From positions 58,694-122,693 of IMG/VR virus record IMGVR_UViG_3300035698_012504: DNA of 64,000 nt; one strand, written 5' to 3'. Below, piece by piece: positions 60,796-64,000 of the stretch. Numbering within the stretch: position 1 is the stretch's first letter; every line of letters begins with the position of its first letter. This stretch comes from a virus. A program made the translations under genes and the position numbers. The notes under the pieces are model-generated. The model saw only the letters and a program-made list of their open reading frames with translations, ran no database searches and was not told the origin of the DNA.

Positions 60796-63700
60796 ATGAC
60801 TGAAAAAATTACAACAGAAGAAGTGAGATTACTTCTTAAATATATTGCATTGGGATATAAAGTTCCTGATATTGTACACGATGTTATATTCGATACAGCA
60901 GTCAGGGAAGTTGAAAATAAAGACAAGGTAGTATTAATTAAGAGAGATCCGAATATTGAACGAGACAGAATTCAAGCTGTCTATGTCAAAGTAATTAATG
61001 GAAAGACAATGGACATTCACCCCTCTACAGTTGGTGGGTTCGGTGCGGACTTTGATGGTGACATGATGGCGATATATGTCCCTATGTCTAATGAGGCTCA
61101 GGCAGAAGCTAAAAATAAAATGATGTCTGTGACCTCAAATTCTAGTATCAATTCTCCCAACTTCAAATTATCTAATGATATGTTGGCAGGGATATATACT
61201 ATAACAAGAGCAAAGAAGGCAGGAGCTCCTGTTAAGTTAAAGAATCTAGGTGAAGCAAATCAACTAGCTCCTAGTACCCAAATAGAAATAAAAGTTAAAG
61301 GAAAAGTTATTAGAACTACCGCAGGTAAAGTTATATTTAATAATGCATTACCTGAGTGGTACCCATTTATTAATGAAGAGGTTCCGGGTGGATTAATAAA
61401 TGAAATATTATCAAATATTATTAAGAAAAATAAAAGAGACTACGCTAGAACAGTAGACAACTTAATGAAAATTGGATTCTATTATGCTACTGTGTATCCT
61501 CAGTCAATTGGTATAGATATGTTTGAACTTCCTCCAAACATCGAACAGCTCAAGAAAGATCTAGGAGCTACAAAAGATGTAGCTAAACAGATAGAAATCA
61601 TAGATGAGATGGAGAAGCAACTACTAATACATTTAGAAAAGAATGTTCCTGAATTATACATTCTAGTTAAGTCTAAGGCTGCAAAGGGAGCAGGACAACT
61701 AAGACAGATAATGATAGCTAAGGGATTAGTAAGTGACGTATCTGATAATATTCTTCCTCCTATTACTAAAGCTATGAATGATGGTTATTCTCCAGAAGAA
61801 TACTTCGAGGCCTCAGTTGGAGCTAGAAAAGGTGTTGTAGATAGATCTCTGAATACAGCTCACGGAGGATATGCATATAGAAAAATGGTATATGTGATGG
61901 GTAATTTAGAAGCTGATATAAATACAGGTAACTGTAGAACCCAACTCACATTAGATGTTAAGTTAACTAAAGACTTATTTAAAAGAATGCCTGGAAGATT
62001 TATTCAGACTAAAGAAGGTATGGTAAAACCTGTCACTGAGAAGATGATAGGGTATGTAATCCCTCTTAGAAGTCCAGTGTATTGTAAATCAAAAGGAATA
62101 TGTAGAACTTGTTATGGGGAATTAATTAATCAAATAAATACAAGTAATGTGGGAATCGTAGCAGCTCAAGAAGTAACAAGTTTATCAGAGAGAATAATGA
62201 AATGTTCTGCTGGATTAGTACATTATAGAAATGAGTTAGTATGGATAGGAGATATTTTTGATTTTGTTGGTGCTGATGCTGAGGTTAAAAATGAATACGG
62301 ATTAAGAATAGAAAGTAAAAAATGTAATGAAATTGTTGACGGTAAAAATGGTAAGGTAAAAGCCACATCTATTGATAAGCATAAACCAAACGATGATATG
62401 TTGATACTAGAAACTTATTCTGGTAATTTTATAGCATGTCAAGCGAACCACCCTCTATGGATAAAGAGTACGCCATTACACCATCTAAATCCGAATGATC
62501 AATGTAGATTATATGGTAAAGAAGAATATGAATCGTTCGATGATCCATCAAACAGCACGGTAGAAAAGAGACGCCACTTTACTCCTGTAAGCAATGTTAC
62601 AGAAGAAAGACGAGCAGATGCTGTAACAGAATACAATACTATATGGATTGACAATTCAATAGTATATAATAGTTTAGAGAAGAAGCTTAGAACTAATGGG
62701 TATATTCTTGGCACATTTATATTAAATGGAAAATGTATTAAGTTTGATAGGTGGCCTGGTATATGTATAGCAACAAAGAATAATACTATAAAAGAAAGAA
62801 TACTGAAAGAGAATAATAACTTCAAGCGATTTGTTATATTAGAAGACGGCGTAACGTTTAGGAGTCAGAAGGAGAAGGAGAAGAGTATGATAAGAGGAGT
62901 GAACGAAAAAGATTTTCGTTTATGCCCTGACTTCATTAACTTTAATAAGGAATGGTTGAAAGACTTTTTAACAGGATTGATTGATAACAATGGTAAAACT
63001 AAAACAGATGTGTTCTCAACAAGTTCTATATTAGTATTGAAAAGTTATCCTCTTGTTCAACAAGTACGATCAATTTGTATGAAGCTCGGATATACTTTTG
63101 GAATGAAACCTGAAGGTGGAAATATGACAGGAGATGATCTTAGATTTATATGTAAGATTAGATACCCATCTGATTCATACGGTCTTCCGACGTTTGAAGA
63201 AATAGATGAAGTGATACCCTCTAAACATATAAGAAAAACTGTAAAGGGATTTGATGTTATTACTAAGATTCATAGAATTAGATATTGGAATGATGATGTA
63301 TATGATATTAAAACCGAGACAAATGAATTCATGATGGGCATGGTACAGAATCATAATAGTTTTCATTGTATAGATGGAGATATGCTTCTATATATTGAAG
63401 AGGATGGAGAAAAAAGATTAGATTCGTTTAAATCAATATGGGAACACAATAATAATCAAATTAATATAACTGAAAAACAGGAAGAAAAAATAGTTAGTGA
63501 TCTTAAAGTATGGGATACTGATAAGTTTATTAATGTTAAGAAGATAATTAGACATAAAAAAGATCAAGGATCAAAGATGGTAATGGTTAGAGATAAGGGA
63601 GGAGATTTTATAATTTGCCAAGATAATCATCCATTAATGTTCTCTAAAAATACTGGGGTTTGTAAAAAATGCGATACACCATTTATAAAACCAAAGTCAA

Positions 63701-64000
63701 CTGGGGTATGGGAATGTCCAATATGTAGATCCCACCCCAGTAAAGTAACTCATAAATCAAATGAAGCATTTATTGAAGTAGAGCCAAAAGAATTTATTAA
63801 ATCGAAATATTTTACAAATAATAACTTTCCTATATGGAATCAAGAAGTTTATAAAAATCCATTAATCGAACCGTACCTTCTAGGTTTTTTCTTAGCAGAA
63901 GGTAGTTTTATAATGGGTAACTCTAGAAGTTATCCAATTGGTATATGTTTCTCACAAAACGAAGGGGAACTCCTAAATGAAATAACAAAAAAATTAAATA
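60796..64000 (+). CDS. multisubunit RNA polymerase beta-prime, catalytic fragment, 3'-partial, with two inteins
   Basis: Absent from the ORF track because it has no stop inside the window. VLIKRDPNIERDRIQAV...GGFGADFDGDMMAIYVPMSNEAQAEA contains the catalytic NADFDGD motif. VAAQEVTSLSERIMK then SFH corresponds to [18 protein letters not shown] of beta-prime. Confidence 0.85.
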   Translation, partial: MTEKITTEEVRLLLKYIALGYKVPDIVHDVIFDTAVREVENKDKVVLIKRDPNIERDRIQAVYVKVINGKTMDIHPSTVGGFGADFDGDMMAIYVPMSNEAQAEAKNKMMSVTSNSSINSPNFKLSNDMLAGIYTITRAKKAGAPVKLKNLGEANQLAPSTQIEIKVKGKVIRTTAGKVIFNNALPEWYPFINEEVPGGLINEILSNIIKKNKRDYARTVDNLMKIGFYYATVYPQSIGIDMFELPPNIEQLKKDLGATKDVAKQIEIIDEMEKQLLIHLEKNVPELYILVKSKAAKGAGQLRQIMIAKGLVSDVSDNILPPITKAMNDGYSPEEYFEASVGARKGVVDRSLNTAHGGYAYRKMVYVMGNLEADINTGNCRTQLTLDVKLTKDLFKRMPGRFIQTKEGMVKPVTEKMIGYVIPLRSPVYCKSKGICRTCYGELINQINTSNVGIVAAQEVTSLSERIMKCSAGLVHYRNELVWIGDIFDFVGADAEVKNEYGLRIESKKCNEIVDGKNGKVKATSIDKHKPNDDMLILETYSGNFIACQANHPLWIKSTPLHHLNPNDQCRLYGKEEYESFDDPSNSTVEKRRHFTPVSNVTEERRADAVTEYNTIWIDNSIVYNSLEKKLRTNGYILGTFILNGKCIKFDRWPGICIATKNNTIKERILKENNNFKRFVILEDGVTFRSQKEKEKSMIRGVNEKDFRLCPDFINFNKEWLKDFLTGLIDNNGKTKTDVFSTSSILVLKSYPLVQQVRSICMKLGYTFGMKPEGGNMTGDDLRFICKIRYPSDSYGLPTFEEIDEVIPSKHIRKTVKGFDVITKIHRIRYWNDDVYDIKTETNEFMMGMVQNHNSFHCIDGDMLLYIEEDGEKRLDSFKSIWEHNNNQINITEKQEEKIVSDLKVWDTDKFINVKKIIRHKKDQGSKMVMVRDKGGDFIICQDNHPLMFSKNTGVCKKCDTPFIKPKSTGVWECPICRSHPSKVTHKSNEAFIEVEPKEFIKSKYFTNNNFPIWNQEVYKNPLIEPYLLGFFLAEGSFIMGNSRSYPIGICFSQNEGELLNEITKKLN
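62203..63357 (+). mobile_element. intein 1 in RNAP beta-prime (LAGLIDADG)
   Basis: Starts CSAGLVHY after ...ERIMK and ends ...EFMMGMVQNHN before SFH. Internal FLTGLIDNNG LAGLIDADG-like motif; block B ...CQANHPLW. Confidence 0.65.
63367..64000 (+). mobile_element. intein 2 in RNAP beta-prime (LAGLIDADG), 3'-partial
   Basis: Starts CIDGDMLLYI immediately after the 3 extein residues SFH. Block B ...CQDNHPLM; zinc-ribbon insert CKKC...CPIC; LLGFFLAEGS LAGLIDADG motif. Continues past the window end. Confidence 0.6.

Follow-up and report, generated by a model that had tools for sequence, protein, structure and literature searches.

We examined a 64,000-nucleotide stretch of viral DNA, positions 58,694 to 122,693 of IMG/VR virus record IMGVR_UViG_3300035698_012504 (the window, numbered from its first letter), which ends within an open reading frame (ORF) for the beta-prime subunit of a multisubunit RNA polymerase whose trigger loop is interrupted by two large elements. 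Residues 34-460 of this precursor corresponded to RNA_pol_Rpb1 domains 2, 3 and 5, each above the Pfam threshold, and the rpoC profile TIGR02386 matched the ORF at an expectation value (E) of 3.6e-55. A separate upstream gene encodes an N-terminal beta-prime fragment; its product aligned to positions 1-42 of the RNA_pol_Rpb1_2 profile (E 3.4e-8) and contains RVDYSARAVI. The N-extein, the host sequence that precedes the first insertion, was 46-62% identical to approximately 50 phage homologs. The best match to the extein in IMG/VR was 36% identical, and the nearest isolates were only about 26% identical; PDB matches included the AR9 polymerase (7s00_D). The host protein is the middle and C-terminal part of a split phage beta-prime, in a layout typical of jumbo-phage multisubunit polymerases.

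Within the precursor frame we observed, in order, ...GIVAAQEVTSLSERIMK (ending with K469 at nucleotide 62202), a first insert reading CSAGLV...MVQNHN, the three residues SFH, and a second insert beginning CIDGDMLL... that continues to the window end (Table 1). These are referred to as intein 1 and intein 2, at sites a and b, respectively. An earlier note on this DNA had read the frame as two inserts separated by SFH, and translation of the ORF bore out both that reading and its coordinates; all of the motifs it cited were also found (CQANHPLW, FLTGLIDNNGK, CQDNHPLM, CKKC...CPIC and YLLGFFLAEGS). A lookup of the product of a neighbouring cupin gene (60346-60783) returned six assemblies, all of which match the window at 100% identity where they overlap it, and two independent ones (L001 and L002) span both insertions and lengthen the ORF past the window. 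The precursor ORF extends to at least 1314 codons in L002, or more than 3.9 kilobases (kb) without a stop. Intein 2 closes there as ...VYDLTTETGTLSINGIFSHN, followed by TGGVSELKRYDIIEAV..., readable as ...LSINGIFSHN/TGGVSELKRYD (a slash marks a splice junction), with the SHN/TGG junction 570 nucleotides past the window end. The earlier note had proposed the downstream sequence as a check on its reading, and the His-Asn terminus followed by TGG in L002 agrees with it. The C-extein was read for 56 residues, the gene stop not being reached, and homologs carry approximately 250 residues at this position. The GC fraction was 0.28-0.34 in the inteins and 0.33-0.38 in the extein, so that composition does not separate the inteins clearly.

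Both insertions lie among the catalytic residues of the trigger loop. A phmmer search against PDB aligned the spliced loop to residues 1221-1245 of Thermus thermophilus beta-prime (1iw7_D), with K469 equivalent to R1239, S855 to T1240, F856 to F1241, H857 to H1242, and the Thr that follows intein 2 (+1) to T1243. Site a therefore falls between the equivalents of R1239 and T1240 and site b between those of H1242 and T1243, and the alignment end points with Escherichia coli chain 10ma_J were consistent with positions R933/T934 and H936/I937. The exteins rebuild a trigger-loop motif collinear with bacterial beta-prime, as had been claimed from the sequence before. The Ser of SFH is the +1 nucleophile of intein 1, and its His serves both as catalytic histidine of the trigger loop and as residue -1 for intein 2. 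The Arg and His that flank these sites are those that contact the incoming nucleoside triphosphate (NTP).

To place the boundaries against homologs, the spliced extein was searched against 5.8 billion proteins and the 62 closest matches were classed by their trigger-loop region. Approximately 20 homologs ran ...IMKSFHTGG... uninterrupted, without either insert, and many subunits of about 720 residues that are 46-54% identical (P0002, P0003, P0008 and others) read ...SEKIMKSFHTGGAV... with neither insertion. One homolog (P0061) is filled at site a only, LIMK/CSDGLVH...VQNHN/TFHTGG, by an insert 38-39% identical to intein 1, with site b empty, while P0050, whose extein is closely similar, is intein-free. 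Each insert begins with Cys and ends with His-Asn, followed by Ser or Thr. Since the residues split at both sites are contiguous in some 20 homologs, and the inserts have these Cys starts and HN/S or HN/T ends, the insertions are not a matter of chance.

Table 1. Beta-prime genes of the window and the features of the intein-bearing precursor.
Feature	Coordinates	Strand	Basis or remark
N-terminal beta-prime fragment gene, 311 aa (amino acids), partner of the intein-bearing gene	57502..58437	+	Pfam RNA_pol_Rpb1_2
Beta-prime middle/C-terminal precursor gene	60796..64000	+	ATG at 60796, open to window end, 1068 codons in window
N-extein, aa 1-469, Rpb1 domains 2, 3 and 5 including bridge-helix region	60796..62202	+	Pfam PF00623, PF04983, PF04998
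Mg-binding catalytic motif ADFDGD, uninterrupted in window	61045..61062	+	sequence
N-terminal trigger-loop arm GIVAAQEVTSLSERIMK, with K469 as Thermus beta-prime R1239	62152..62202	+	phmmer to 1iw7_D
Intein 1, 385 aa, aa 470-854, Cys1...His-Asn, +1 Ser	62203..63357	+	AlphaFold model, Foldseek, 77 cluster representatives
Intein 1 first residue, Cys470	62203-62205	+	
Intein 1 block B, CQANHPLW	62437..62460	+	family alignments A1, A2
Intein 1 LAGLIDADG motif 1, YILGTFILNGK, Asn for catalytic Glu/Asp	62701..62733	+	relatives have AEG, GDG or SEG
Intein 1 LAGLIDADG motif 2, FLTGLIDNNGK, Asn for catalytic Asp	62965..62997	+	relatives have DGDG, DTDG or DSDG
Intein 1 blocks F and G (VYDIKTETNEFMMGMVQNHN), ending His384-Asn385	63298..63357	+	conservation
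Three-codon extein Ser-Phe-His between the inteins	63358..63366	+	aligned to Thermus T1240-F1241-H1242
Intein 2, 401 aa, first 211 in window, Cys858 at 63367-63369	63367..64000	+	L002 translation
Intein 2 block B, CQDNHPLM	63616..63639	+	Q, D, H, P nearly invariant in alignment A3
Cys4 zinc-ribbon-like insert CKKC-x14-CPIC, after intein 2 block B	63661..63726	+	alignment A3
Intein 2 LAGLIDADG motif 1, YLLGFFLAEGS, catalytic Glu intact	63874..63906	+	Pfam LAGLIDADG_3, E 0.011

Searched against PDB with phmmer, intein 1 had no match and intein 2 matched ribosomal zinc ribbons alone, and the family profile matched I-DmoI and PI-SceI at E of about 1e-3 only. With both the profile searches and the PDB sequence searches weak, a comparison of folds was needed, and it proved decisive. 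The AlphaFold model of intein 1, built with 14 family sequences, had a predicted local distance difference test score (pLDDT) of 87.2 and a predicted template modelling score of 0.89. Its top 16 Foldseek matches in PDB were all endonuclease-bearing inteins, led by TliVMA (E 2.6e-17) and followed by PhoVMA, PI-SceI, PI-PfuI and PI-PkoII, with LAGLIDADG endonucleases and mini-inteins further down. For site b we modelled the intein of P0132, 46% identical to intein 2 (pLDDT 87.5), and found PI-PfuI (E 1.3e-16) as well as TliVMA and PI-SceI. The central domain of both models matched I-DmoI, I-SceI, I-OnuI and I-Tsp061I, showing an endonuclease fold embedded in the Hint domain at its canonical position. 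These models, that of intein 2 by way of its relative, agree with the earlier note's reading of the inserts as inteins: they have Hint and LAGLIDADG folds, not that of a lineage-specific beta-prime domain.

The two elements are also related to each other. Intein 1 and intein 2 were 25% identical over their full length (BLASTP E 6e-12), and hhalign aligned the site-a and site-b family profiles over 369 columns (E 1e-42), so that the pair is paralogous. The splicing residues are intact in both, namely Cys1, the block-B His, the block-F Asp, the C-terminal His-Asn and the +1 Ser or Thr. Across the family Cys1 and the penultimate His are nearly invariant and the C-terminal Asn invariant; in the intein 1 family Gln80, His83 and Pro84 of block B and D368, T371, N383 and N385 are invariant, and H384 nearly so. 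The modelled folds and these residues identify both elements as probable class-1 LAGLIDADG inteins, mechanistically ordinary.

Differences between the two inteins were observed in their endonuclease domains. The earlier note had given one LAGLIDADG motif to each intein; the motifs it cited are present, but each intein has two, and both of those in intein 1 lack the acid. With both catalytic acids replaced by Asn, the endonuclease of intein 1 is predicted to be dead. Intein 2 retains both acids, its second motif (ILCGIIDGDGS) lying past the window end. Intein 2 also carries the Cys4 insert, whose four Cys are kept in seven of the nine A3 sequences that cover the region (the window's included), the remaining two having a deletion or a different Cys spacing. 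The insert weakly resembles eL43/L37ae ribbons (TIGR00280 E 4.7e-4, Pfam E 0.024), and the corresponding region of the P0132 homolog model was of low confidence (pLDDT 58-64).

An exhaustive phmmer search with intein 1 over 1.84 billion cluster representatives gave 77 matches, 76 of them newly retrieved. Most of those with readable flanks sit in beta-prime trigger loops, at four sites: site a, MK/...HN/(S or T)FH; site b, FH/...HN/(T or S)GG; site c, TERS/...HN/TQLT (P0165, P0181); and site d, EPLTQ/...HN/SAMxSFH (P0179, P0192). Sites d and b are filled together in P0179. The same a-plus-b tandem as in the window was directly observed in 14 of the 76 cluster representatives, and the site-b inteins of those tandems were 38-51% identical to intein 2 among those aligned. 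The earlier note had called the tandem unusual, which holds for GenBank phages and the literature searched, where none was found, but not for metagenomic clusters, in which it recurs at the frequency just given. A tblastn search of either intein against 50,697 GenBank phage records gave no match at E up to 1e-3. In IMG/VR we found at least four site-a loci, three of them on contigs of 194-236 kb, and a word-index protein search with intein 2 returned two relatives only. As a separate observation, a protein of 4739 residues (P0166) carries two back-to-back inteins at site b (residues ~3730-4480) with zero extein residues between them, SFH/CFAKD...LLSHN/CSHGETL...LLSHN/SGG, and a further intein ends just before an upstream CYG motif.

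Among the 62 closest extein homologs, approximately 21 stop 21-31 residues past IMK, in the pattern C..G......EDLW..stop, which corresponds to the N-terminal fragment of a site-a intein. The matching C-terminal ORFs begin Met..ETK, with the Met consistently just before the conserved ETK, and carry ...HN/SFHTGG and the C-extein. Such split forms were observed at L007 (10001-14852) and L008 (10001-11539 and 18247-19728), and among proteins P0011, P0014, P0017, P0019, P0025-P0027, P0029-P0031, P0033, P0034, P0036-P0038, P0046 and P0047. A free-standing ORF of the endonuclease-like DUF7487 family lies between the intein halves in L007; in L008 a distance of 6.7 kb separates them. These forms are naturally occurring inteins with an atypical split, arranged as a "fractured gene". 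Intein 1 of the window is one continuous ORF and is not split. Since the polymerase of the split forms otherwise cannot be made, they argue that the intein lineage splices. A group I or group II intron was considered as the cause of the split, and no Rfam match (E up to 0.1) was found in L007 9500-15500, the sole locus scanned; the consistent Met-ETK starts of the C-terminal intein ORFs and the 6.7 kb between the halves in L008 also disfavour an intron origin. Three DUF7487 ORFs in all surround the polymerase genes of L007 (8429-9988, 11449-13368 and 20075-21464). A different break was observed in L010 (9850-10060), where a fused beta/beta-prime gene of 1629 residues ends ...TQLTLSTFH/CMHGDNLVFIKRKKEAKVEVITFSDL and then meets an in-frame TGA exactly at the conserved Trp of FxxLW; from the next ATG, 10 codons on, the site-b intein carries on to WTHN/TGGAVKK. 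A split intein may have arisen here through mutation of Trp to a stop; alternatively the TGA may be read through or recoded, or may reflect a sequencing error.

We consider it highly probable (about 0.85) that the window encodes a jumbo-phage beta-prime precursor with two homologous class-1 LAGLIDADG inteins in its trigger loop, at two sites 9 base pairs (bp) apart. We infer that both inteins splice, whatever the order of the two events. By the usual four steps, each intein would undergo an acyl shift at Cys1 and pass the N-extein on to its +1 residue, Ser for intein 1 and Thr for intein 2; the C-terminal Asn would then cyclise, and an O-to-N shift would make the peptide bond. Two such events would join 469 residues, SFH and approximately 250 residues into a subunit of about 720 residues with the contiguous loop ...SERIMKSFHTGGVSE... 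Because the NTP-contacting loop residues are held apart by 385 and 401 residues, unspliced polymerase should be catalytically crippled. With its acids intact and its extra Cys4 module, intein 2 is probably an active homing endonuclease that would cut intein-free alleles of co-infecting relatives. With 9 bp between the two sites, repair of a cut by intein 2 would be expected to co-convert intein 1, which most likely persists through this co-conversion tract or through earlier fixation. Another contiguous tandem, P0132, shows the same pattern as the window pair.

Several points weigh against this reading. The scan with curated intein profiles that the earlier note had suggested gave only sub-threshold scores: Pfam Intein_splicing reached 27 bits against a cut-off of 35.8, NCBIfam intein_Nterm (TIGR01445) and TIGR01443 reached 19.5 and 13.3 on intein 2 against cut-offs of 24.5 and 15.6, and no NCBIfam intein profile matched intein 1. 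These scores from the curated hidden Markov models (HMMs) indicate that the intein blocks are divergent. Block B is QxNHP in place of T-x-x-H, the His being invariant and the Thr replaced by an invariant Gln in both families. The fold assignment of intein 2 comes from its 46%-identical relative and not from a model of its own, the intact C-extein is deduced from 56 residues and from homologs, and splicing of both inteins is a prediction. A three-residue spacer between two domains of approximately 45 kDa could also hinder one of the splicing reactions. The weak HMM scores are the only point in favour of regarding the inserts as lineage-specific beta-prime domains, or as an assembly chimera, and not as inteins. 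This we regard as effectively refuted by the Hint and LAGLIDADG folds, whose top PDB matches were only inteins and homing endonucleases, by boundaries that are exact against empty-site homologs, by the 100% identical sequence from independent assemblers and samples, and by the same arrangement in divergent clusters.

Loss of splicing in at least one element, leaving either a dead or crippled subunit of a decaying gene or a permanent insertion domain, would fit the sub-threshold HMM scores and the already decayed endonuclease of intein 1, and bacterial trigger loops do tolerate big unspliced inserts such as SI3 of E. coli. We think this very unlikely, as the splicing nucleophiles, His-Asn termini and family-invariant positions are intact in both elements, no stop interrupts more than 3.9 kb of ORF, and identical sequence was obtained from several samples; SI3, moreover, follows the catalytic motif, whereas these inserts part the Arg or Lys from the His and the His from GG. 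The two inteins could instead splice conditionally, in a slow, ordered, or redox- or zinc-sensitive manner, and serve as a post-translational timer or switch for the polymerase, not as tolerated parasites. Placement of both sites at the catalytic loop would make activity all-or-none with respect to splicing, intein 1 keeps its splicing residues although its endonuclease is dead, and about half of the close relatives have site a filled, some of them by split forms whose loss would kill the gene. A Cys before the block-B Gln in both inteins and the Cys4 module of intein 2 are possible redox or zinc sensors, but the Cys beside block B is not invariant in either family. Selfish inteins generally enter conserved catalytic motifs in any case, because of endonuclease target conservation and selection against imprecise loss, and rate and conditionality are conjecture here, so that we judge such a switch unlikely. 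A broader proposal that combines these observations is possible but doubtful: that the trigger loop in this phage polymerase clade is an intein hot spot not described before (at least four sites in approximately 10 residues), whose occupancy by paralogous inteins could matter for function. If so, double splicing would have to be ordered or interdependent because of the three-residue spacing and would gate polymerase activation during infection, the dead intein 1 would survive by co-conversion with the active intein 2, the pair moving as a single composite mobile element, and the lineage would have given rise repeatedly to natural split inteins with N-fragments of 21-31 residues.

Other features were observed near the polymerase genes and elsewhere in the window. 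Three ORFs (58453-60786, + strand) lie between the two beta-prime fragments and encode a very acidic protein of 384 residues, a basic protein of 235 residues, and a cupin of 146 residues (60346-60783), of which only the cupin has a PHROG or Pfam match. Two beta-prime relatives, P0016 (922 residues) and P0028 (924 residues), have an insert of approximately 205 residues within the catalytic motif, NADFDGD/TMAV. Its first residue is Thr or Ser, it has a block-F-like GYDLTVDDFYTF, a C-terminal Asp in place of Asn, and a +1 Thr. The insert is a possible mini-intein, of non-canonical type, in the Mg-binding loop. A third intein of the window (~1496-2545) lies within a RecA/UvsX-like ORF (1139-3424, + strand), in the Walker A loop: GPPGCGK/AQPLYSK...FIVTHN/STLAAKV. 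This intein starts with Ala and has a Trp at block B position 12 (TLDHLW), a Cys at block F position 4 (EAQCIEV) and a Thr before HN, completing the WCT signature of class 3 inteins, and both of its LAGLIDADG motifs keep their acids. An ORF of 914 residues (30648-33392, + strand) matched the Major Vault Protein shoulder domain (E 7.7e-28) and a Vault_3 repeat (E 4.1e-10), which is unusual for a phage, and a free-standing T5orf172/MUG113 endonuclease-like ORF was found among essential genes (23772-25463, + strand).

Comparison with known systems places these elements as follows. The best structural matches, TliVMA/PhoVMA (7qsu, 7qss, 7qst), PI-SceI (1vde), PI-PfuI (1dq3) and PI-PkoII (2cw7), at E 1e-17 to 1e-10, share the Hint domain, the nested two-motif LAGLIDADG domain, Cys1 and the C-terminal His-Asn. 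The window pair differs from them in its hosts, in sequence (10-17% identity), in the QxNHP block B, in the acid-less intein 1 and in the Cys4 insert of intein 2. Another large trigger-loop insertion is SI3 of E. coli beta-prime, a permanent sandwich-barrel-hybrid domain placed after the catalytic Met, Arg and His residues; the window elements, in contrast, have a Hint fold and splice-junction residues and are placed between catalytic residues.

Large phages commonly carry inteins and introns (PMC7886860, PMC12880540, bioRxiv 10.1101/2020.12.14.422802). Among RNA polymerase inteins, those listed for the largest subunit are only the archaeal Mja rPol A', Mja rPol A'' and Nph rPol A'' (Goodwin et al. 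2006, PMC1635734), while those of the second-largest subunit occur in eukaryotes and as a virus remnant (PMC1635734). The archaeal inteins, like those described here, are in the beta-prime homolog, A'' being the trigger-loop-bearing part, but they are found in cellular hosts with one intein per subunit. The junction of an archaeal-type site a, HN/TFH[YF]AG, was matched only 10 times when 185,579 species genomes were scanned, each time by chance and never in a polymerase gene, and the archaeal-type FH[YF]AG loop was in none of the 77 intein 1 relatives. Closely spaced sites are known in DnaB, whose intein sites a and c are two residues apart in a conserved motif; the co-occupancy reported there concerns DnaB sites b and a, distant from each other in sequence, rather than the adjacent pair (Novikova et al. 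2016, PMC4760082). In the present case sites three residues apart are both filled at once, by homologous inteins. No paper in the literature searched linked inteins to the trigger loop in this sense, and none concerned "tandem inteins".

What is new here is the phage polymerase trigger loop as a host site, the paralogous co-occupancy of sites three residues apart, and a family with split forms. A catalytic trigger loop assembled after translation by two predicted splicing reactions would make phage transcription dependent on intein chemistry. The pair also adds new insertion sites and a new host protein to intein biology, and its rare co-occupancy is relevant to the spread of inteins to new sites and to the persistence of those with a dead endonuclease. 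Because gene callers and the Pfam and NCBIfam thresholds miss these elements, the polymerase genes of such phages are expected to be mis-annotated as oversized or fragmented. The split relatives resemble the atypically split inteins cited in PMC11766414 and PMC6892783, including AceL-TerL with its N-fragment of 25 residues and the "fractured genes" (Dassa et al. 2009), in that intein 1 relatives are split after 21-31 residues and L007 has an endonuclease-like ORF between the halves. They differ in that the host is a polymerase subunit instead of a terminase or helicase and in that a degenerate remnant of the LAGLIDADG domain persists in the larger fragment. Inteins split so close to the N-terminus are described as rare and are valued for protein labelling (PMC11766414), and the relatives found here represent a sizeable untapped pool of them for protein engineering.

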